DNA of 64,000 nt, taken from contig DASSOG010000054.1 in assembly GCA_035700805.1 (NCBI GenBank), positions 9,653 through 73,652 on the forward strand, read 5' to 3'. How positions within the stretch are numbered: the stretch's first letter is position 1; each line of letters begins with the position of its first letter. The notes below the pieces were generated by a model. It was not told the origin of the DNA. It was given only the letters and a program-made list of their open reading frames with translations, and did no database searches. Both the position numbers and the translations under genes were made by a program. Positions 4,184 to 14,489 of the stretch are shown here, piece after piece. Source of the stretch: Gemmatimonadaceae bacterium (GTDB lineage Bacteria; Gemmatimonadota; Gemmatimonadetes; Gemmatimonadales; Gemmatimonadaceae).

Positions 4184-4231
4184 GGTCCTCCGCTTATCAT
4201 ATGATCACTACCTGGAGGAGGGGAGTCCGTC

Positions 4232-5197
4232 ATGGGTGAGCCCGCGACCGGACGCACCGCCCGAATCTGGCGGGACGGCCAGCTCGTGAACTGGGAAGAC
4301 GCCACGATCCACGTGATCAGCCACGTGGTGCACTATGGGTCGAGCGTCTTTGAGGGCATGCGGTGTTACGAAACGCCCTCTGGCGGAGCCGTGTTCCGCG
4401 CCCGCGACCACATGCGCCGCCTCGTGGACTCCTGCCGCATCTATCGGATTCCGCTCAAGTACTCCGTGGACGAGCTGGTGCGGGGGTGCCTGGACACGAT
4501 CGCCGCCAACCAGGTGCGGGAGTGCTACTTCCGGCCGGTGGTCATCCGCACGGGCGAGCAGATGGACGTGCTGGCCGCCGCGGCCACGGTCGAGACCTAC
4601 ATGATCGCGTGGAAGTGGGGCGCGTACCTGGGCACCGAGGGCATGCAGCACGGCGTGGATGCGCGGGTCTCGAGCTGGCGCCGCGCCGCGCCCGATACGT
4701 TTCCCACCATGGCCAAGGCGGGCGGTAACTACCTGAGCTCGCAACTGGCCAAGATGGAAGCCAAGGCCGACGGCTATGCCGAAGGCATCATGCTGGATGC
4801 CGCCGGCTTCATCTCGGAGGGGAGCGGCGAGAACCTGTTCGCGGTGCGCGACAACGTGCTCTACACGGCGCCGCTCTCGGCGGGCATCCTGCCGGGCATC
4901 ACGCGCGATACGATCATCCAGCTCGCGCACGACCTGGGGCTGGAGGTGCGCGAGCAGCTCCTGCCGCGCGAATTCCTGTACATCGCCGACGAGCTGTTCT
5001 TCTGCGGCACGGCGGTGGAGGTCACCCCCGTCCGCAGCGTGGACCGCGTGCCCGTGGGCAGCGGCGACCGCGGGCCGGTGACCGCCCGGCTGCAGAAGCT
5101 GTACCTGGATACCGCGCACGGCCGCGCGCCCGACCCGCACGGCTGGCTCACGCCCGTGCCGGAACCCGCCGTCGTTGCCGCCGGAGCCGGACGATGA
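4232..5197 (+). CDS. ilvE: Branched-chain amino acid aminotransferase (class IV)
   Basis: Typical N-terminus (IWRDGQLVNWEDATIHV...HYGSSVFEGMRCY) and GITRDTIIQLA. Strong RBS GGAGGAGGGGA upstream of the ATG. Confidence 0.9.
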   Translation: MGEPATGRTARIWRDGQLVNWEDATIHVISHVVHYGSSVFEGMRCYETPSGGAVFRARDHMRRLVDSCRIYRIPLKYSVDELVRGCLDTIAANQVRECYFRPVVIRTGEQMDVLAAAATVETYMIAWKWGAYLGTEGMQHGVDARVSSWRRAAPDTFPTMAKAGGNYLSSQLAKMEAKADGYAEGIMLDAAGFISEGSGENLFAVRDNVLYTAPLSAGILPGITRDTIIQLAHDLGLEVREQLLPREFLYIADELFFCGTAVEVTPVRSVDRVPVGSGDRGPVTARLQKLYLDTAHGRAPDPHGWLTPVPEPAVVAAGAGR

Positions 5198-5237
5198 GAC
5201 CCCTGTCGGTGGCGCGGCGCGCGGTCGGGAGGCGGGC

Positions 5238-5819
5238 ATGATCGTCGGATGCCTGGCCCTGAACGCGTCGTTCGAGCCGCTGACCATGGTGCCGCTCAAG
5301 CGGGCCCTGCGCCTGGTGATCGACGGCAAGGCCGAGATCGTCGAAGCCGACCATGACCGGTTCGTGCACTCGGAGCGCCTGTCGCTGCCGCGCCCCGTGG
5401 TCATTCGCCTCACCAAGTTCATCCACGTGCCGCGCCGCTTCCGGCGGCAGGTGACCAACACGTTCCTGTTCGCGCGCGACCATTACCGGTGCCAGTACTG
5501 CGACCGGCATGTCACGGAACTCAAGCCCCGCGAGTCGCTCACGCGCGATCACCTGATTCCGATTTCGCGCGGCGGCACCAACGACTGGACCAACGTGGTG
5601 GCGGCGTGCAGCGCGTGCAACACGCGCAAGGGCAATCGCATGCCCGACGAGATCGGGATGCATCCGCACACGATCCCGGTGGAACCGCATTTTGTGCACC
5701 TGAGCTGGGCCGTGCGCCGGCTCACGCCCATCCAGGCGCGGTACATCCGGACGTTCTATGGCGACACGGTGCTGCACCAGCTCGAACAGCTCGAGCATCG
5801 AGGCCCGGCGCTGGCCTGA
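5238..5819 (+). CDS. HNH endonuclease family protein
   Basis: HNH/Cys-box core CQYCDR...DHLIPISRGGTNDWTNVVAACSACNTRKG. Start set at MIVGCLALN (ATG 5238) inside the 214-aa ORF. Confidence 0.8.
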   Translation: MIVGCLALNASFEPLTMVPLKRALRLVIDGKAEIVEADHDRFVHSERLSLPRPVVIRLTKFIHVPRRFRRQVTNTFLFARDHYRCQYCDRHVTELKPRESLTRDHLIPISRGGTNDWTNVVAACSACNTRKGNRMPDEIGMHPHTIPVEPHFVHLSWAVRRLTPIQARYIRTFYGDTVLHQLEQLEHRGPALA

Positions 5820-5869
5820 CGCGCGACCCCGGCGCTGTCCGGCGGGGGATGCGCAGCCGTTGGCGCGGG

Positions 5870-6535
5870 TCACTTCTCGCCGGCTACGAACGTGGGCGAG
5901 GTGGCCTCGTAGCTCCGGTGCGTGCCGCCCAGGACGCGTGAGAGCAGCCGCCCGATGCCGTTCCTGAGGGCGGACAGGGGGTTGCCGCTGCCCTTCACGG
6001 CGGGCCGCAGGTCGCCGTGCACCCAGCGCTCCAGTTCTCCCAGGTCGCTGGCGTTCAGCGATTCCACCTCAAGCACCACGTTGTAGTAATACCGCTCGCC
6101 CTTGTGGGACGGCGCCAGGCGCACGCGATACGGCTGCGCCAGCACTGCCTGCGCCGAGTCGAGCGAGGTGATGGCGCCAAAGTCCTCGGACTGCTTGCCG
6201 TCGCGCCGCAGGATGCGGTACGCGGGTCGGTAGGGATCCGGCAGGTACTGCACCAGCACTTCCCAGTGTGTGCTGCTCTCCAGGTGGTTGAACATCCCGC
6301 CGCTGCGCCACAGCTCCAGGCGGAAGTTCAGCTCCACGGGAAACCCGTTGTGCATCAGTTCCTGGAGCGGCGGGTCGTCCAGGATGTGCGTGGCCGACAC
6401 CGCCGGCACGCGCGTTGCTTGTGCGGCGGCCAGGTCCACGCGCACGCCCGGCGCGCCCTGCGCTGCGGCACGCGGCGGCAGCATGGCCAGCGCAAGGGCC
6501 AGGGCCGGGAGCAGGAGGTGGAGGCGCCGGTGCAC
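5870..6535 (-). CDS. Secreted DUF4390-like protein
   Basis: Signal peptide (LLLPALALALAMLPPRAAAQ). Size and pattern resemble DUF4390 by recollection only (ELNFRLELWR...YRILRRDG...YYYNVVLEVESL). GTG start lies 3 nt after the upstream stop. Confidence 0.6.
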   Translation of the reverse strand: MHRRLHLLLPALALALAMLPPRAAAQGAPGVRVDLAAAQATRVPAVSATHILDDPPLQELMHNGFPVELNFRLELWRSGGMFNHLESSTHWEVLVQYLPDPYRPAYRILRRDGKQSEDFGAITSLDSAQAVLAQPYRVRLAPSHKGERYYYNVVLEVESLNASDLGELERWVHGDLRPAVKGSGNPLSALRNGIGRLLSRVLGGTHRSYEATSPTFVAGEK

Positions 6536-6538
6536 GGG

Positions 6539-8257
6539 CTAGAAGCGATGCTGCAGCCGGATGAACACGCGCGCCGGCAGTCCTGCCTCGGACAGTGCCT
6601 TGGCCACGTACACACCCACATTGTCGAAGTCGAGCCCGAACCCGATGTCGGTGTGGAACGTGGACGGGTCGGGCAGGGTCCAGCGGCCGTAGCGCACCGG
6701 CCCGCTGCCGCTCCCCGGACCGGTCATCCAGCCGCGTCCGGCGTCCAGGAACAGCACCCACGCGCCGTTGGCATTCAGGTGCGGTCGCACCCAGTCGTCG
6801 TTGTCCCAGTCGAACAGGTGCAGGTGCAGCGCGCTCCGGTATTCCGCCTGCGCGAGGGCAATGCGGTCGCACTGCGCGGGCATTCCCGCGGGCACCGCGC
6901 CAAAGGCGCACGTGGACACATCCAGTCCGGACACGGGCCGCCGGAACCCGAATCCGGGAAGCGCATCGTAGCCGTCCACGGAGAGCCGGCGCTCAGTGGG
7001 CAGCGCGTCGCCGCCCAGCCACCCGCCGGCCACCACGCGGAGGTTGAGCTGCACGTTGCGCGATACGCGATTGTAACGGCGCAGGTCCACGAACAGCCGG
7101 TTGTACTGCGCGGCATCGGTGGCGGGATAGCTGCGCACCACGCCCGTGCCCGCCAGCGAATCGAAGCGCACCCATCCGTGCTCGAACTCGCCAGCTACGT
7201 ACCAGCCGGCCCAGGGGTTCGCTTCGTCGCTGCGCGTGTCGATGTTCAGCGCCAGGCGGGCCAGGTGCGCGCGCGCGTCGTCCAGCGTCGGGTTGGGACG
7301 CCAGGCGGCATCCGAGCGGAACAGGCTCCACGCGTTTGCCGCGGCGCGGGGGCTCCAGTGTTCGCTGGCATACGAGGCCTTGAGCGTGGCGTCCGGCCCG
7401 ACAAAGAACCCTGCCTCCAGGCTGCCACCCTGCCGGTTATACCAGTCCCGATAATCCCGCCGGAACAGCCCCGACGTGAGGCCGGTTTCCAGGTTGCTCA
7501 GCCCCCACGCTTCCACGGGGGTCACGAGGTCGTACGCTCCCGCGCCCAGCAGCACGCCGCGGCGGCCACCCAGCCGGATTTCCGTGCGCAGGTTGTGGCC
7601 CACGTCGTTGTCGGTGCTGCGGAAGCTGCTGGCCGTGCGCAACACGGCGTATGCGTCCAGGCGCGCGGTCCATCCATCAAAATCGCGCTCCATCTGGGGA
7701 CCCAGATTGATGGGCAGTCCCTCCACGCGGTTGTAGGCGCCGGCGCTCGCTACGTGCAGCCTCGTGCCGCTCCAGTCCTGCTCGTGCTCCACGCGCCGCC
7801 ACCACGGCTCCTCATCAATCCCCTGCTCGGTGGCGCGGATGCGGTCGCCCGATCGGGTGTAGCGCAACGGATCACGGTAGATGCGGATCTCCCCACCCAC
7901 GTACCCGGCGTTCTGGCCGATCACCGTGCCACCGACCACGAGCAGGTTGCCGTCAATTCGCGCGCTCGGGGCCAGCGTTACGTTGCCGTTGATGGCCAGG
8001 AGCGTGCCGGTCACGTGACCGGCCACCTGCACGGGCCCGTCGAGCACCGCCACGTCGCCGGTGATCTCGCGCGCGGCGTGCACATCCAGGGCGCCCGCCA
8101 CACGCAGGGTGGCGTCGGCGTTGTACAGGCGCACGGCTTCGCGGGCCACGTCGCGCGGGAGGGCGCGGCCGTCGAGCCCGGAGTCCGGTTGTTGCGCCCG
8201 GAGCGCCAGGGGCATGGTGAACAGCACGATCGCGAGCAGGAGACGACGCATGGACAT
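6539..8257 (-). CDS. Outer-membrane protein: N-terminal bactofilin-like (polymer-forming cytoskeletal, beta-helix) repeats fused to an Omp85/surface-antigen-type beta-barrel
   Basis: Signal peptide MSMRRLLLAIVLFTMPLALRAQ. The segment GDVAVLDGPVQVAGHVTGTLLAINGNVTLAPSARIDGNLLVVGGTVIG matches the bactofilin repeat style. The C-terminal part has alternating beta-strand character, an ERRLSVDGYDALPGFGF motif (Omp85 RF-LGG-RGY-like), and ends in ...RLQHRF. Confidence 0.72.
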   Translation of the reverse strand: MSMRRLLLAIVLFTMPLALRAQQPDSGLDGRALPRDVAREAVRLYNADATLRVAGALDVHAAREITGDVAVLDGPVQVAGHVTGTLLAINGNVTLAPSARIDGNLLVVGGTVIGQNAGYVGGEIRIYRDPLRYTRSGDRIRATEQGIDEEPWWRRVEHEQDWSGTRLHVASAGAYNRVEGLPINLGPQMERDFDGWTARLDAYAVLRTASSFRSTDNDVGHNLRTEIRLGGRRGVLLGAGAYDLVTPVEAWGLSNLETGLTSGLFRRDYRDWYNRQGGSLEAGFFVGPDATLKASYASEHWSPRAAANAWSLFRSDAAWRPNPTLDDARAHLARLALNIDTRSDEANPWAGWYVAGEFEHGWVRFDSLAGTGVVRSYPATDAAQYNRLFVDLRRYNRVSRNVQLNLRVVAGGWLGGDALPTERRLSVDGYDALPGFGFRRPVSGLDVSTCAFGAVPAGMPAQCDRIALAQAEYRSALHLHLFDWDNDDWVRPHLNANGAWVLFLDAGRGWMTGPGSGSGPVRYGRWTLPDPSTFHTDIGFGLDFDNVGVYVAKALSEAGLPARVFIRLQHRF

Positions 8258-8289: not shown

Positions 8290-8305
8290 CGCACCTCCCG
8301 TGCCG
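8290..8305 (-). promoter_or_regulatory. Candidate sigma-54 (-24/-12) promoter for the bactofilin-Omp85 / DUF4390-like operon
   Basis: The minus strand reads CGGCACGGGAGGTGCG. This gives GGCAC then TGC with exact GG-N10-GC spacing, 39 nt upstream of the ATG at 8257. GAGGGA RBS lies downstream. Confidence 0.45.
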
Positions 8306-8419: not shown

Positions 8420-9799
8420 TCATTCGGCGTCGTTGTCGATCCCCAGCCGACGCATCCGGCGGTACAGGTTGGGCCGGTCCGTCTGCAGCCGCCGCGCCGC
8501 CTCTGCCACATTCCCTCCCGCCACGGAGAGGGCCCGCGAAATCAGCGTGCGCTCAAATTCGTCGAGCGTGTCGTTCAGCGGCTGGGTCAGTCGCGCGGGA
8601 TCGGGAAGGGGCGGCTCGGCGCCCGCCTCGCTGCCTCCAATCTGGACCACCGCGCGCACGTCCGCCGCGGTCACCTCACCGCCCGCGTGCAGGATGGCCA
8701 GGCGTTCCACCACGTTGGCCAGCTCGCGGACGTTGCCGGGCCAGCGGTAGCGCGTGAGCAACTGCAGGGCCTCTTCACCCCACGGGGGGGCCGGATGCCC
8801 GGTGCGCGCGCGGTGCAGGCGCGAGAAGTGCTCCACCAGCGGCGCGATGTCGTCAGGGCGTTCGCGCAGCGGCGGTACCGGCAGGGGAATCACATTCAGC
8901 CGGAAGAGGAGGTCCTCGCGGAAGCTCCCATCGGCCACCGCCCGCGTAAGGTCCTTGTTGGTGGCGGCCAGGATGCGCACGTCCACGCGGATGGGGGCGC
9001 CGCCGCCCACACGCTCAATCTCCCGGGCTTCGATGGCGCGCAGCAGCTTTGCCTGCGCCTCCTGCCCCAGGTCGCCCACCTCATCCAGCAGCAGCGTGCC
9101 CGTGTGCGCCAGCTCAAAGCGGCCGATGCGCCGCTCCGAAGCACCGGTAAAGGCGCCCTTCTCGTGCCCGAACATCTCGCTCTCCACGAGGTCGCGCGGA
9201 ATGGCCGCGCAGTTCACGCGCACGAACGGCCGGTCGTGCCGAGGGCTGGCGAAGTGGATGGCCGCCGCCACCAGCTCCTTGCCGGTGCCCGACTCGCCGG
9301 TGATCAGCACGCGGGCATCCGTGCCGGCCACGCGGTCAATCAACCCGCGGACGCGGTCCATCGCGGCGCTCCGACCCACCATCTCGCCGCCCAGCCCCAC
9401 CTCCTCGCGAAGCGCCCGGGCCTCGCGGCGCACGCGTCGCAGTTCGATGGCCGACGCCAGCGCCAGGAGTACGCTCTCAGGGCTCAGCGGCTTTTCCAGG
9501 AAGTTGAATGCGCCTTCCTTGGTGGCCTTCACGGCATCGCTCAGGTCCGCCTTGCCGCTCATCATCACCACGGGCGTGTCGGGCAGCGCCTGGCGCAGCC
9601 GGTGCAGGGTGGCCATCCCATCCAGCGCGCCGGGCATCGAGAGGTCCAGCAATACCGCGTCCGGCTCGGCGTCGGCGGCGCGCAGCAGGCCCGAGGCGCC
9701 GTCGGCGGCATCGCGCACCTCGAACCCCTCGGCGGCGAGCAGTGCCCCCACCATGCGCCGGATGTTCGGCTCGTCGTCGATGATCAGGACGCTGGGCAT
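8420..9799 (-). CDS. Sigma-54-dependent response regulator (NtrC family: receiver + AAA+ + Fis-type HTH)
   Basis: Receiver ([11 protein letters not shown]...VLLDLSMPG), Walker A GESGTGKE and an intact GAFTGA loop. C-terminal HTH: [26 protein letters not shown]. Confidence 0.92.
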
Positions 9800-9833: not shown

Positions 9834-10142
9834 TCAGCGCGTGGGCGGCTGGCCGCTGCCCACCGACCTGGTCTCGGTCTGCAGACGCGTCAGGAATCGC
9901 TGCGCTTCGGCCACGCGCTCAATCTCCACGGCAATCGAGTCCACCGTCTGTTCAATGCGATCCAGACGCGACTCCAGATTCGCTGGAATGGCGGGCGGCT
10001 CCGCCCGGCGCTCGAAGCGCCGGATGATCGCCCGGACGATGGGCAAGCCGAGCACCATGGCCGTGACCATGGTGAACACGATCGCGACGATCGGGACGGC
10101 GTTGCTGGGAATGCCGTTCATGGGCATCTGAAGGAGCATCAT
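9834..10142 (-). CDS. Small single-pass membrane protein, paralog B (102 aa)
   Basis: This is the in-frame tail of the spurious 314-aa ORF. It has an N-terminal TM helix ([21 protein letters not shown]) and the motif [29 protein letters not shown]. Its ATG overlaps the upstream stop (ATGA). Confidence 0.7.
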
Positions 10143-10423
10143 GATTGCACCGTTGACTTGGCCGCGGGCAGTGGCACCGCCGCGCGTTCCGACAGGAGCC
10201 GGGTGGTGAAGCGCTGCCCCTCGGAGATGCGCTCGATCTCCACCGCGATGGAATCCACGGCTTGTTCGATGCGCGCGATCCGTGCTTCCGTCTCGGCACT
10301 CAACCCGCCCGCCGCGCTCCCCTTGGGCTCCGGGCGCTTGCGGAACAGTCCCAGAAAACTGGTCACGACGTATCCGCCAACCAGGAGCGCCGTGATTGCA
10401 ACGATCATCGTCTGGCCGTCCAT
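10139..10423 (-). CDS. Small single-pass membrane protein, paralog A (94 aa)
   Basis: TM helix (MIVAITALLVGGYVVTSFLGLF) followed by [30 protein letters not shown]. Starts 2 nt after the kinase stop. Confidence 0.75.
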   Translation of the reverse strand: MDGQTMIVAITALLVGGYVVTSFLGLFRKRPEPKGSAAGGLSAETEARIARIEQAVDSIAVEIERISEGQRFTTRLLSERAAVPLPAAKSTVQS

Positions 10424-10425
10424 TG

Positions 10426-11682
10426 CTATGCTCCCGTTTCCAGTGAGTTGGTGTGTCCATCAGCCTCGACTGCCGCGCCCACCGGCAGGACGAAGCGCAC
10501 CGTCGTCCCCACCCCCGGCGTGCTCGCAGCCGTGACCTCGCCCTCGTGCGCCAGGGTGGTCTGCCGGGCGATGGCCAGTCCCAGCCCCGTGCCGCCAGCC
10601 TTGTACGTAACGTACGGATCCCACATGTGCGCCAGTTGGTCGGGTGGAATGCCCGGTCCCGTGTCCTGCACGTCAATGGCCACGGCCGGCTGTCCGCGGA
10701 GGGTGGCGGGCGCCACGCGCAACGTGATGGCGCCGCCCGCGGTCCCGACGCCCACGGCGCGGCACGCGTCAGCCGCATTGAGCACCACGTTGCTCAGCGC
10801 GCGGTGCAGGGCGTCGTGGTGGCCCAGGATCATCGGTGTGGTCGGGTCGACCTCGATGGCCAGGGGAAGTTCAGGGGGCACGGAGGTCCGCGCGACGTAG
10901 CGCACCAGGTCGCCCAGGTCCACGGGCGCGCGCGGGCCCTCGGGCAGCCGCCCGAACTGCGAGAAGCTGCGCGCCAGTGTTTCCAGTCGCGATGTCTCGG
11001 TGGCCAGCACGTCCACAATTTCCTCCAGGTTCCCGGGCGCCTCGCGCCGCAGCCGCGCCACTGCAAAGCGAATGGGCGTGAGCGGGTTCTTCAGTTCATG
11101 GGCCGCCTGCCGCGCGGCCTCGCGCAATGCGGCCGCGCGCTCGGCCTCCAGCGCGCGCGTGCGGCCCAGCTCGATCTCGTCGGCCATGACGCGCATGCGC
11201 GCGCGCAACACCTCGAATTCCGGCGCCCCCCGTGTGTGCACCGGAGTGGGCAGCGGTTCACCGCGCCCGATCCGTTCGGTCCATCCTATCAACTCCACCA
11301 GCGGGCGACTCAACTGGCGGCTCAGGTGGCCGGCCACGCGTGAGGCCCCGAGGCCCACGACGATGGCCAGGAGCAGGATGGCCAGCGCCGCCACCACCAC
11401 CGCCTTCTGGGCGACGTAGGCCAGTTGCCTGGAGTGCAGCAGGTTCTGGCGGAGGGCTTGCTGGTGGGCGTCCACGGCGCGGCGCTGGGCCTGCGTCAGC
11501 GGGGCGGAGCGCACGGCGTCGGCGGCGCGAGAACCGCTGGCGGCCACGCTGTCCCACGCGGTGGTGGCGCCCACCATCGAGAAGGCCCACCGGCTGGTGG
11601 TGAACCACCCCAGGCCGAGCAGGGCAGACGGCACCAGCGCGAACGACAGCAGGATGACAAACAGCCGGCTGCGAAACCCCAT
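10426..11682 (-). CDS. Sensor histidine kinase (2 TM, HAMP, HisKA, HATPase_c)
   Basis: H-box AAHELKNPLTPI, N-box NVVLNAADA, and G-boxes DTGPGIP and GGTGLGLAI. Start set at MGFRSRLFVILL (ATG 11682) inside the 534-aa ORF. Confidence 0.85.
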   Translation of the reverse strand: MGFRSRLFVILLSFALVPSALLGLGWFTTSRWAFSMVGATTAWDSVAASGSRAADAVRSAPLTQAQRRAVDAHQQALRQNLLHSRQLAYVAQKAVVVAALAILLLAIVVGLGASRVAGHLSRQLSRPLVELIGWTERIGRGEPLPTPVHTRGAPEFEVLRARMRVMADEIELGRTRALEAERAAALREAARQAAHELKNPLTPIRFAVARLRREAPGNLEEIVDVLATETSRLETLARSFSQFGRLPEGPRAPVDLGDLVRYVARTSVPPELPLAIEVDPTTPMILGHHDALHRALSNVVLNAADACRAVGVGTAGGAITLRVAPATLRGQPAVAIDVQDTGPGIPPDQLAHMWDPYVTYKAGGTGLGLAIARQTTLAHEGEVTAASTPGVGTTVRFVLPVGAAVEADGHTNSLETGA

Positions 11683-12111
11683 GCGGTTCACGAGCCCTCC
11701 CTGAGTACGCGAGCAGTCGGCGGCAGTTTCGTCTCGCAACATACAGGGCGGGGGGGTGGCCAACCAGCGGCCAAGGCTTCCGGGATTTCCATTTACCCAA
11801 TACATTATCTGGGTTGACAATCGGTCCCCCGGGCGACGCGCCGGCTTGGCGCGTGCACGGTTTGCAGGTCCGGATTGCCACCGCGGCGGTCGCACGCCCG
11901 CCGGGAGGACGCCCATTCGTGGCGCGCCCTCCAAACCAAGGCTCTTCGTACCGCGCCATTCCGGGCGCGGCCGGCGGGTCGCGTGCCGATCGACGGGCGC
12001 TGCTCGGTGACGATCGTCTGCGCACGTCATGCACGGACGACCTGCCCCACGCGCCTGGCGGCCGAATCCATAACCGCCAAGGGCCCCTCAGGGGCCCGCA
12101 CAGGAAAGGGC

Positions 12112-13848
12112 ATGAACCCTCGTAATCAGCGCCGCGAACCCACGCGTTCGCACGGCGCCCTCGTCCACCGTGGGCCGCAGGCCACGGCCATCGCCTCACA
12201 CCCGGTTTCCGCGCTGCCCTTCCAGGCACCGAACGCGGCGCTCCTCATCGACTTTGACAACGTCACGATGGGGATCCGATCCGACCTGGGGCACGAACTC
12301 CGCAACCTGCTCGGCTCCGACATCATCAAGGGCAAGGTGGCCGTGCAGCGCGCCTACGCCGACTGGCGCCGCTATCCGCAGTACATCGTGCCGCTCACCG
12401 AGGCGTCCATCGACCTGATCTTCGCGCCGGCGTACGGGTCGTCCAAGAAGAACGCCACGGACATCCGCCTGGCCATTGACGCGCTGGAGCTGGTGTTCAC
12501 CCGCCCTGAAATCGGCACGTTCATCCTGCTGTCGGGCGACTCGGACTTCTCCAGCCTCGTCATCAAGCTCAAGGAGTACGGCAAGTACGTCATCGGCGTC
12601 GGCATCCGCGAGTCCTCCAGCGACCTGCTGGTGATGAACTGCGACGAGTACTACAGCTACAACGCGCTGGCCGGGCTGGTGAAGGCGCATGAGGACGAAG
12701 GGGCGCGCAAGTATGACCCGTGGGAACTGGTCACCGAGGCCATCAACCGCATGGAGCGCAACGGCGACGTGATGCGCTCCGACCGGCTGAAGCAGGTGAT
12801 GCAGGACATCGACAGTTCGTTCGATGAGAAGAACACGGGCCATTCCAAATTCTCAAAGTTCGTGCAGGATGCCGCGGCGCGTGGGCTGCTCACGCTGACC
12901 AAGCTCGAGAACGGCCAGCTTGAAATCGCGCCGGCCGCGGGCAGTGCAGAGGCCAAGCCGGCAGTCGCCGGCGCGGCACCCGCGACGGAGCCGCGTGGGG
13001 AGCGTCCCGGCACTGGCGAGGAGCGCAACGGGCGTCGGGGTCGTCGTGGCGGACGTGGCCGCGGTCGTCGCGGGGCAGAGGCTCCGCAACTGGAGCTGGC
13101 CTCCGGCTCGGCGGCCAAGGGCGCTGCGCCCGCGTCCGCTCCCGCCCCTGCTTCCGCAACGGCTGGCGCCGGCGCGACTGCGCAAGGCGAGCGGCTCACG
13201 CGCAACGAGGCCTTCGACCTGGTGCGTCGCGCCGTGGAGACGCTCACGACCACCGACGAAGTGGTGCGTGCAAGCGCGGTGCGCCTGCGTGCCGCCGAGT
13301 TGCTGGGGCGTGGCAGTGAAAGCCTGAGCGAGCGCAACTTCACGCGCATCCTCCAGGACGCGCACGATGCCAACGTGGTGGACCTCCGCCGCCGTGGCGA
13401 CGACTTCGAGGTATCCCGCGCGGTGGCCGCGGCGGCCGTGGCCGACCAGCTCGCGGCATCCGCCGCCGCGCAGGCGCCGGCAGCGGCGCCTGCGGCCCGG
13501 ACACCTCGGCTTGGCATGGGTGCGCGCGGTGGCGCCTCACGCGGCCGTGCGCGCGCGGGTGAACTGCCCCCCGAATTGCTGGCGGTTGGCGTGGTGAAGA
13601 CGGCTGCTGCGGCAGCCCCGGCCCCAGCTCCCGCGGTCGCGGCGGCAGAGGCGCCCGCTGCTTCCGGTGAGGATTCGAAGCCCGCGCCCAGGAAGCGTGG
13701 TCGCAAGCGCAGTGCGAAGAAGGCGGCTTCCGCGTCCGATGCGGAGTCCACCGCCACGGATAAGGCGGCCCCGCGCAAGGCGCCACGCAAGCGTCGCACC
13801 GCCCGGAAGACGGCGAGCAGCGACGACACCGCAAAGGCCGAAGCGTGA
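12112..13848 (+). CDS. NYN (LabA-like PIN-fold) domain protein with two OST-HTH/LOTUS-like domains and a Lys/Arg/Ala-rich tail
   Basis: NYN core (ALLIDFDNV...KNATDIRLAIDA...LLSGDSDFSSLVIKLKEYGKYVIGVG). Helical OST-HTH-like segments and a basic low-complexity C-terminus. ATG 12112 is preceded by AGGAAAGGG. Confidence 0.82.
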   Translation: MNPRNQRREPTRSHGALVHRGPQATAIASHPVSALPFQAPNAALLIDFDNVTMGIRSDLGHELRNLLGSDIIKGKVAVQRAYADWRRYPQYIVPLTEASIDLIFAPAYGSSKKNATDIRLAIDALELVFTRPEIGTFILLSGDSDFSSLVIKLKEYGKYVIGVGIRESSSDLLVMNCDEYYSYNALAGLVKAHEDEGARKYDPWELVTEAINRMERNGDVMRSDRLKQVMQDIDSSFDEKNTGHSKFSKFVQDAAARGLLTLTKLENGQLEIAPAAGSAEAKPAVAGAAPATEPRGERPGTGEERNGRRGRRGGRGRGRRGAEAPQLELASGSAAKGAAPASAPAPASATAGAGATAQGERLTRNEAFDLVRRAVETLTTTDEVVRASAVRLRAAELLGRGSESLSERNFTRILQDAHDANVVDLRRRGDDFEVSRAVAAAAVADQLAASAAAQAPAAAPAARTPRLGMGARGGASRGRARAGELPPELLAVGVVKTAAAAAPAPAPAVAAAEAPAASGEDSKPAPRKRGRKRSAKKAASASDAESTATDKAAPRKAPRKRRTARKTASSDDTAKAEA

Positions 13849-14489
13849 GCCCGGGCGCCGCGCTGGCTGCGCGGCGCCGTGGGTCAGGAGCCGCCCTGCC
13901 GGCCCGCTTCTTCGCGCGCGACACCGAGTTTGTCGCGCGCGAGTTGCTGGGTTGCATCCTGGAATGCCGGTCGGCTGACGGGGGCGTGGCGTCGGGCCGG
14001 ATTGTCGAAACCGAGGCGTATCTGGGCGAACACGACGCCGCGTGCCACGCCGCCGCCGGGTACACCGCGCGCACGGCGCCGCTCTACGGCGCGCCGGGGA
14101 CGGCCTATGTGTACTTCGTCTACGGCATGCACTGGTGCGTGAACGCGGTCACGCGCCGGCGCGGGTTACCGAGCGCCGTGCTGATTCGCGCGCTGGAGCC
14201 CGTTCGCGGGATTGAGCTGATGCGTGGACGCCGGCGGCATCCTCGGCGCGATCGGGACCTTACGAACGGGCCGGCCAAGGTGTGCGAGGCGCTGGGCATC
14301 GATGCGCGGTACAACGGCGTCTCACTGCAGCGCGGGGCGCTGGTGATTCGAGCGGGGGCTCGCGTGCCCGATGGTCAGGTGCTGGTCACGCCACGCATCG
14401 GCATTCGGAAGGCCGCCGACTGGCCGCTGCGGTTCCTGGTGGCTGACAATGCCTGGGTGTCGCGCACCCCCGCGCATTCGCGGGGGTGA
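13845..14489 (+). CDS. mpg: DNA-3-methyladenine glycosylase (Mpg/AAG family)
   Basis: Motifs ETEAYLG, YFVYGMHWCVN, LIRALEP and NGPAKVCEALGI. GTG start overlaps the upstream stop (GTGA). Confidence 0.85.
   Translation: MSPGAALAARRRGSGAALPARFFARDTEFVARELLGCILECRSADGGVASGRIVETEAYLGEHDAACHAAAGYTARTAPLYGAPGTAYVYFVYGMHWCVNAVTRRRGLPSAVLIRALEPVRGIELMRGRRRHPRRDRDLTNGPAKVCEALGIDARYNGVSLQRGALVIRAGARVPDGQVLVTPRIGIRKAADWPLRFLVADNAWVSRTPAHSRG

Follow-up and report, generated by a model that had tools for sequence, protein, structure and literature searches.

We analyzed a 64,000-nucleotide stretch of the Gemmatimonadaceae bacterium assembly GCA_035700805.1 (contig DASSOG010000054.1, positions 9,653 to 73,652, forward strand), hereafter the window, in which two small tandem genes, termed A and B, are embedded between the genes of a sensor histidine kinase and a sigma-54-dependent response regulator. 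A and B are real paralogous genes and belong to a new, unannotated protein family for which neither Pfam nor NCBIfam holds a model. The four adjacent genes are the following (window coordinates).

10426..11691, minus strand: sensor histidine kinase with the Pfam domains HAMP, HisKA and HATPase_c, two transmembrane (TM) helices and a periplasmic loop of ~68 amino acids (aa)
10139..10423, minus strand: gene A, the first copy after the kinase, encoding a 94-aa bitopic membrane protein (open reading frame [ORF] and its translation)
9834..10142, minus strand: gene B, the paralogue beside the regulator, encoding 102 aa and masked by a 314-aa ORF (9834..10778)
8420..9799, minus strand: sigma-54-dependent response regulator with a receiver (REC) domain, an AAA+ domain containing GAFTGA and a Fis-type helix-turn-helix (HTH) domain (Pfam Sigma54_activat, 1.1e-67; Response_reg; HTH_8)

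A first-pass annotation of this DNA, made by reading the sequence without database searches, had described A and B as tandem paralogues, each with one N-terminal TM helix and with a common C-terminal helix. The coordinates and sizes of both genes were as claimed, and the two 32-residue motifs quoted for the common helix were exact, with 23 of 32 positions identical. The start of A lies 2 nt past the kinase stop codon and is preceded at a distance of 9 nt by the Shine-Dalgarno sequence GGGAG, located within the 3' end of the kinase gene. The ATG of B (10142-10140) and the TGA of A (10141-10139) share a 4-nt overlap, which reads ...CAA TCA TGA TGC TCC... on the minus strand. This stop/start overlap had been noted before and is real, and an ATGA or GTGA overlap between A and B is kept in 10 of the 10 closest related loci; the string quoted for it, ATGATGA, was slightly wrong and has to be replaced by TCATGATGC.

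The same annotation had proposed that B is hidden inside a spurious ORF of 314 aa. This is borne out by the coordinates, by the start sites of B orthologues and by base composition. Upstream of B, the 314-aa ORF is non-coding, since its GC content there at codon positions 1, 2 and 3 (.68/.75/.64) is unlike that of the B part (.65/.45/.85), of A (.66/.50/.81) and of the regulator gene (.77/.48/.89). B orthologues start at M(M)LLQ, and they carry the motif IPxN-x-VP ahead of the TM helix and PI(I/V)RA(I/V)IR after it. These data correct a gene-calling trap, namely the swallowing of B-type genes by long spurious ORFs.

Over their full length, A and B align in BLASTP with 46% identity across 74 residues (E = 1e-19). 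Within a 33-residue core, 23 residues are identical, 14 of which are specified by different codons, and the nucleotide identity of the core amounts to 67/99. The likeness of A and B is therefore maintained by selection at the protein level, and it reflects neither a DNA repeat nor a recent gene conversion. A protein identical to A, originating from a Gemmatimonadaceae metagenome-assembled genome, has been deposited as 'hypothetical protein [Gemmatimonadaceae bacterium]'.

To define the family, a word-indexed homologue search was carried out, which returned 1,039 homologues, along with an exhaustive HMMER search, which returned 2,490 clusters (50% identity) at E <= 0.001. Every named match was a 'hypothetical protein' of the Gemmatimonadota. 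Homologues with the shared helix thus occur in other genomes, and the core is near-invariant in more than 2,000 sequence clusters. A scan of one genome per species located the family at no fewer than 582 confirmed places, and the best 79 of these at least 582 loci all belong to Gemmatimonadota. These 79 genome loci (L001-L079) were picked solely by similarity to A and form the basis of the comparisons below; some gene counts use 80 sequences, that is, the 79 loci and the window itself.

Database searches did not connect the family to any characterized protein. Searches of A and B against Pfam and NCBIfam gave no family above cut-off, and a Pfam search with 117 relatives gave only scattered sub-threshold matches to helical or coiled-coil families, including DUF948, DUF2730 and PspB. 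The Rv2743c family (PF25587) was considered and rejected: it matched B only (14.1 bits versus a cut-off of 27.7; E 0.039), did not match A, and was absent from the 25 families most often matched by the 117 relatives. A sequence search of the Protein Data Bank (PDB) with the family profile found nothing, the best match being the ZapA coiled coil (E 0.066), and our literature search found no paper on the family. A family of more than 2,000 sequence clusters merits a model in the domain databases.

The placement of the small genes between the kinase and the sigma-54 regulator, noticed in the first-pass annotation for this single genome, is conserved in many Gemmatimonadota. At ~47 of the 79 loci, an orthologue of the kinase is followed by one to four tandem family genes and then by an orthologue of the regulator, with 1, 2, 3 and 4 copies present in 15, 16, 8 and 8 loci, respectively. 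Downstream of the kinase and regulator genes lie a gene for an Omp85-like protein and then a gene for a DUF4390 protein, and both are also found in most of the metagenome loci that were retrieved with the kinase as anchor (L092-L169). The region is rich in long spurious ORFs, which might suggest that A, B or both are chance open frames in GC-rich DNA. This explanation is refuted by the thousands of known homologues, by a third-codon-position GC content (GC3) of coding type, by synonymous divergence alongside amino acid conservation and by the conserved position, and we consider its probability practically nil.

We then compared how the small genes are joined to their two neighbors. The kinase stop codon overlaps the start of the first copy in ~24 of the 47 loci, and the two lie within 22 nt of each other in 40 of the 47. 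The last copy never overlaps the start of the regulator gene, from which it is separated by 0-99 nt. Judged from these gene junctions, translational coupling is real, and it links the kinase with the first copy more strongly than it links A with B. The first-pass annotation had deduced from the A/B overlap both coupling and a fixed stoichiometry. The coupling stands, as does the overlap in all ten closest loci; a fixed A:B ratio is not general, because the copy number varies from one to four at these loci and is zero in other Gemmatimonadales.

The domain organization of A and B was delimited as follows.

10340..10417, minus strand: TM helix of A, residues 3-28 (predicted local distance difference test [pLDDT] score of 90-95 in AlphaFold2; Kyte-Doolittle peak of 2.17 at residues 6-24)
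10184..10282, minus strand: invariant, predicted cytoplasmic helix core of A, residues 48-80 (conservation per column 0.65-1.0, entropy near 0, pLDDT 89-98)
10035..10091, minus strand: TM helix of B, residues 18-36 (Kyte-Doolittle peak of 2.57)
9870..9968, minus strand: invariant helix core of B, residues 59-91 (by alignment to the core of A)

Each protein contains a single hydrophobic 19-mer (residues 6-24 in A, 18-36 in B). There are no Lys or Arg residues before this segment in either protein, and the 15 residues that follow it contain four in A and five in B. This distribution indicates an N-out/C-in topology, with the N-terminus outside and the C-terminus predicted to be cytoplasmic. Neither protein has a Cys residue or a cleavable signal peptide, the single TM segment being flanked by basic residues on its C-terminal side. 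An AlphaFold2 model of A, built with a 117-sequence alignment (mean pLDDT 83), consists of the TM helix (residues 3-28), a disordered linker (29-42), a continuous helix (43-82; pLDDT 89-98) and a disordered tail.

The cytoplasmic helix of A has a 3-4 hydrophobic repeat (I49, I52, V56, I59, I63, I66), after which comes the invariant stretch E-x-E-R-I-S-E-G-Q-R-F-T-T-x-L-L. Among the 117 relatives, E62, R65, E68, Q70, R71 and F72 are 100% conserved, and all positions outside residues 48-80 are highly variable, with high entropy. The residues at surface (b, c and f) heptad positions, namely E62, E64, R65, E68, R71 and F72, are as invariant as those at the core positions. Since the surface positions are as fixed as the core, we infer that the helix contacts a conserved non-self partner, beyond mere self-association.

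The divergence of the N-termini, also reported in the first-pass annotation, is pronounced. When the tail, TM helix and linker are compared among close relatives, identity reaches.48 for A sequences and.68 for B sequences but.31 across the two; the corresponding values for the core are.88,.85 and.64. On the basis of these identities, A and B are separate orthologous lines in the close relatives and have, by all appearances, been subfunctionalized.

Many relatives, especially of the B type, have 60-170 additional residues ahead of the TM helix (P0123, P0134, P0157, P0175, P0182, P0199, P0267, P0068, P0069 and P0109). These alanine- and proline-rich tails combine a poly-Pro run with a recurring 'DGRT(I/V)(I/V)VDP' element, and they lack a signal peptide. 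If the N-out topology is right, the long tails must therefore cross the membrane without one. Natural fusions were sought among the longer relatives, where only low-complexity proline-rich tails and no informative domains were found.

Considering the invariant cytoplasmic helix, the TM and outer parts that are specific to each paralogue and conserved among orthologues, the site of insertion and the coupling to the kinase, we tentatively favor the view that A and B are co-regulators, anchored in the membrane and added on to the adjacent NtrY-like kinase/sigma-54 activator pair, a view to which we give somewhat less than an even chance. Through the invariant helix, all copies would dock on one and the same conserved cytoplasmic surface. 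The likeliest docking target would be the helical stalk of the kinase formed by the HAMP domain and the dimerization and histidine phosphotransfer (DHp) domain, as suggested by gene order, coupling and geometry: the small genes are coupled to the kinase, and a tether of ~15 residues would set the helix at the depth of this stalk below the membrane. Docking on this stalk would bias the kinase versus phosphatase output that the sigma-54 activator receives. As a target, the regulator offers a credible alternative to the kinase. The variable outer part, that is, the TM helix and, in relatives, the proline-rich periplasmic tails of 60-170 residues, may provide an input specific to each paralogue, an idea with which the long tails are consistent. 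Copies located elsewhere in the genome could act like connector proteins and channel additional inputs to the same partner, and the activator would most likely drive the downstream Omp85-like and DUF4390 envelope genes.

A broader version of this proposal is that the family represents 'plug-in mini-receptors', in which paralogues with diversified periplasmic tails and TM helices converge through one common helix on a single NtrY-like kinase/activator pair. Together with the periplasmic DUF4390 protein, they would form an envelope-sensing system of four or more components, whose range of inputs has grown through tandem duplication, with 0-4 copies inside the operon and others dispersed. We regard this extended scenario as possible but rather doubtful.

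Several observations weigh against the co-regulator view. The metagenome scan anchored on the kinase yielded 65 informative loci, of which 40 have at least one copy directly after the kinase and 25 have none. In ~21 of these 25, the kinase and regulator genes are adjacent, with a gap of -1 to 11 nt, and the Omp85-like and DUF4390 genes still follow in the insert-free Gemmatimonadales clusters (insert-free metagenome loci: L093, L094, L135 and L139-L163). Because the same cluster, with adjacent kinase and regulator genes, exists in other Gemmatimonadales, the small genes represent a lineage-specific insertion, the four-gene cluster itself being older. The kinases of the insert-free loci L093 and L094 are as similar to that of the window as are the kinases of insert-carrying loci, which suggests secondary loss or repeated gain of the small genes. 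When kinases and regulators from insert-carrying loci were compared with those from insert-free loci, no telling co-varying patch came to light; only five and three group-specific conserved sites, respectively, were found, which were not clustered, and phylogeny confounds the comparison.

Furthermore, 22 of the 79 loci hold family members without a kinase or activator nearby. These include a conserved four-gene tandem array that encodes proteins of ~85 aa each, with stops and starts that often overlap, far from any kinase or activator (L080, 7504-8362; L088, 4942-6512; L081; L089). The array is preceded by a PfkB-family kinase gene and by a gene whose 163-aa product has multiple TM segments and contains a CxxC...CxxC zinc ribbon. 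Dispersed single genes are found beside a cold-shock gene or sugar transporters, and among the neighbors of the dispersed copies that we examined no recurring partner emerged. One 2.36-Mb contig holds both an A-type gene and a dispersed copy. The suggestion in the first-pass annotation that A and B might be accessory sensor or inhibitor subunits of the kinase is therefore plausible in view of the conserved placement, but it cannot be the whole story, given that the family also occurs away from any kinase.

The main rival to the co-regulator view is that the small proteins are co-expressed cargo, namely small membrane effectors (for example, membrane-stress or membrane-organizing proteins) that self-assemble via the coiled-coil helix, some of which happen to ride on the kinase-regulator transcript. 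The many copies in unrelated neighborhoods, among them the four-gene array and the single genes, agree with this explanation, as do the 0-4 copies at the locus, a heptad pattern compatible with self-association and the scattered weak Pfam matches to 'TM plus coiled coil' families (DUF948, DUF2730, PspB). However, a membrane effector should conserve its TM segment, whereas in this family the TM segment varies between paralogues and it is the cytoplasmic helix that is invariant; the invariant surface residues would imply a shared non-self partner; and at the locus the insertion is always exactly between kinase and regulator and is coupled to the kinase. In addition, sites resembling the -24/-12 elements of sigma-54 promoters are not enriched in the <=200 nt upstream of family genes (6 in 31.6 kb, or 0.19/kb, versus a background of 0.28/kb). 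We consider the cargo explanation unlikely overall, yet substantial enough to be kept in mind.

The location of the last copy, always 0-99 nt from the regulator gene, also invites the idea that A and B are anti-activators, whose tethered helix sequesters or inhibits the sigma-54 activator, as PspA does with PspF, until a membrane signal releases it. The activator is a complete GAFTGA-containing AAA+ protein, and a single conserved target of this kind would account for the invariance of the helix. Yet the tight and often overlapping coupling is with the kinase and not with the regulator, no similarity to PspA or to known anti-activators was detected, and the regulator is already controlled via its receiver domain and cognate kinase, so that we deem this possibility improbable. 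Far less probable still is that A and B are divergent adaptors of the phage-shock PspB/PspC type, a resemblance that had been raised in the first-pass annotation. A and B share with PspB the small size (~75-100 aa), the N-out/C-in topology, a zipper-like cytoplasmic helix and a sigma-54 activator nearby, and 3 of the 117 relatives gave sub-threshold matches to PspB (best E 0.0082). Nevertheless, neither A nor B matched the Pfam families PspB or PspC at E <= 1, and a profile-profile comparison (hhalign) with PspB, based on a shallow alignment of 14 exclusively enterobacterial sequences, returned a probability of 16.8% over 13 TM columns. The cluster contains no pspA or pspC gene, and its activator has a receiver domain and is under kinase control, unlike the receiver-less PspF. 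The resemblance is thus architectural only. The identity with PspB (PF06667) adaptors is largely refuted by the lack of a significant profile match and of PspA/IM30 or PspC domains nearby, and PspC (PF04024), which matched neither A nor B and was not among the families matched by the 117 relatives, was discarded.

Returning to the co-regulator view, precedents for additional kinase-directed components exist. In Bordetella, the DUF4390 protein PlrP has been shown genetically to be a periplasmic third component of PlrSR, a pair of the NtrYX family, in a 2026 study (PMC13001219). PlrP acts genetically on the NtrY-family kinase PlrS; it is soluble, resides in the periplasm and is presumed to target the periplasmic PDC domain of PlrS, and DUF4390 genes are reported to co-localize always with NtrYX-type pairs in Proteobacteria (PMC13001219). 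The window cluster is similar in that an NtrC-class two-component pair and a DUF4390 gene are combined in one cluster. A and B differ from PlrP, to which they are unrelated, in being bitopic and in having their conserved part, by prediction, in the cytoplasm. Moreover, the window kinase contains neither a PAS nor a PDC domain, its Pfam domains being HAMP, HisKA and HATPase_c only, with 15 residues separating the first two, and the DUF4390 gene follows the regulator gene instead of preceding the kinase gene. No NtrY model was among the top NCBIfam matches of the kinase, and the regulator scored below all NCBIfam equivalog cut-offs (AtoC, 428 bits; NtrC, 426 bits; NtrX, 406 bits, with an NtrX cut-off of 600), so that the window pair has neither the PAS-containing NtrYX architecture nor an NtrX equivalog. 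'NtrY' is the annotation given by the Joint Genome Institute (JGI) to several orthologues of the kinase from a related insert-free locus and is an automatic label. Based on these labels and on the published association of DUF4390 with NtrYX, the cluster looks like a distant relative of the PlrSR-PlrP arrangement in another phylum. The link between DUF4390 (PlrP) and NtrC-class two-component systems is hereby extended beyond Proteobacteria to Gemmatimonadota, with a different gene order.

The closest analogue in terms of operon structure is QseE-QseG-QseF (GlrK-YfhG-GlrR) of Enterobacteria, where an accessory gene likewise lies within one operon, flanked by the genes of a sensor kinase and a sigma-54 response regulator. 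QseG is an outer-membrane lipoprotein of ~230 aa that acts from the periplasm, whereas A and B lack a signal peptide or lipobox, are predicted N-out/C-in inner-membrane proteins with a cytoplasmic helix and occur in one to four copies. The closest functional analogues may be the small membrane-protein kinase modulators MgrB, SafA, MzrA, WalH/WalI and LiaF and the cytoplasmic inhibitor Sda, with which the family would share, by analogy, the principle of a small protein that binds a kinase and shifts its kinase/phosphatase balance. MgrB, SafA, MzrA and WalHI act through periplasmic or TM contacts, and Sda is soluble. Connector proteins of this type bring in additional inputs from elsewhere in the genome. 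We found no sequence relationship of A or B to MgrB, SafA, MzrA, WalH/I, LiaF or Sda. To our knowledge, none of these is a multi-copy family that joins a membrane anchor to an invariant cytoplasmic helix, the combination seen in the A/B family, whose named matches are confined to Gemmatimonadota.

Judged from its sequences and gene contexts, the A/B family appears to be a group of accessory modulators of two-component systems. Accessory remodelers of two-component signaling are, as far as we know, documented mainly from a few Proteobacteria and Firmicutes, and most were found singly. The host phylum is abundant in soil and has barely been studied genetically. If the family indeed acts on the kinase or regulator, the range from zero to four copies, along with the dispersed genes, would offer a natural series that shows how inputs join an existing pair.

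The remaining features of the cluster and its surroundings are listed below.

11790-11850, minus strand: unusually AT-rich patch TTGTCAACCCAGATAATGTATTGGGTAAATGGAAATCC, ~100-160 nt upstream of the kinase start
8291..8304, minus strand: tentative sigma-54 -24/-12-like site GGCACGGGAGGTGC, with the canonical GG-N10-GC spacing
6539..8257, minus strand: secreted protein of ~570 aa (Pfam Omp85, E 0.0011; Bactofilin, E 0.0029; both sub-cut-off)
5870..6535, minus strand: last gene of the cluster, encoding a DUF4390 (PlrP-like) protein (E 0.0023 for the window copy, sub-cut-off)
5175-5819, plus strand: HNH endonuclease, a real gene opposite an antisense ORF
4232-5197, plus strand: class IV aminotransferase, a real gene opposite an antisense ORF
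11875-13848, plus strand: 657-aa protein that combines NYN and OST-HTH/LOTUS domains with a long C-terminal tail rich in Ala, Pro and Arg, divergent from the kinase
13845-14489: methylpurine-DNA glycosylase, after the NYN gene, upstream of the cluster and on the other strand

The ~570-aa protein has a signal-peptide-like start (MSMRRLLLAIVLFTMPLALRAQQ); its N-terminal region is weakly bactofilin-like and its barrel weakly Omp85-like, and its gene is present in 51 of the 80 sequences. The DUF4390 gene co-localizes with the cluster in 48 of the 80, and 14 of 15 orthologues match PF14334 (best E 6e-11). The cluster ends at this gene. Two minus-strand ORFs of 241 and 417 aa (window 4208-5873) that seemed conserved were rejected as antisense shadows of the two plus-strand genes that encode the HNH endonuclease and the aminotransferase. 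Such shadows call for caution in ORF-based synteny analyses of DNA with ~70% GC.

The kinase may start at a GTG at 11691, behind GGGAGGG, or at an ATG at 11682, and the AT-rich patch upstream is likely the promoter region of the six-gene cluster. The 160-nt gap that separates the regulator stop from the start of the Omp85-like gene contains the -24/-12-like site, ~35 nt upstream of that start. Within the window by itself, the site lacks significance (3 matches versus 1.5 expected). L001, L002, L004 and L006 have an identical or near-identical site at the same offset, and 18 of 50 loci have a similar one. This site may be a sigma-54 promoter of the Omp85-like and DUF4390 genes. On the other side of the cluster, the NYN gene and the methylpurine-DNA glycosylase gene are syntenic with it in 37-46 of the 80 sequences.

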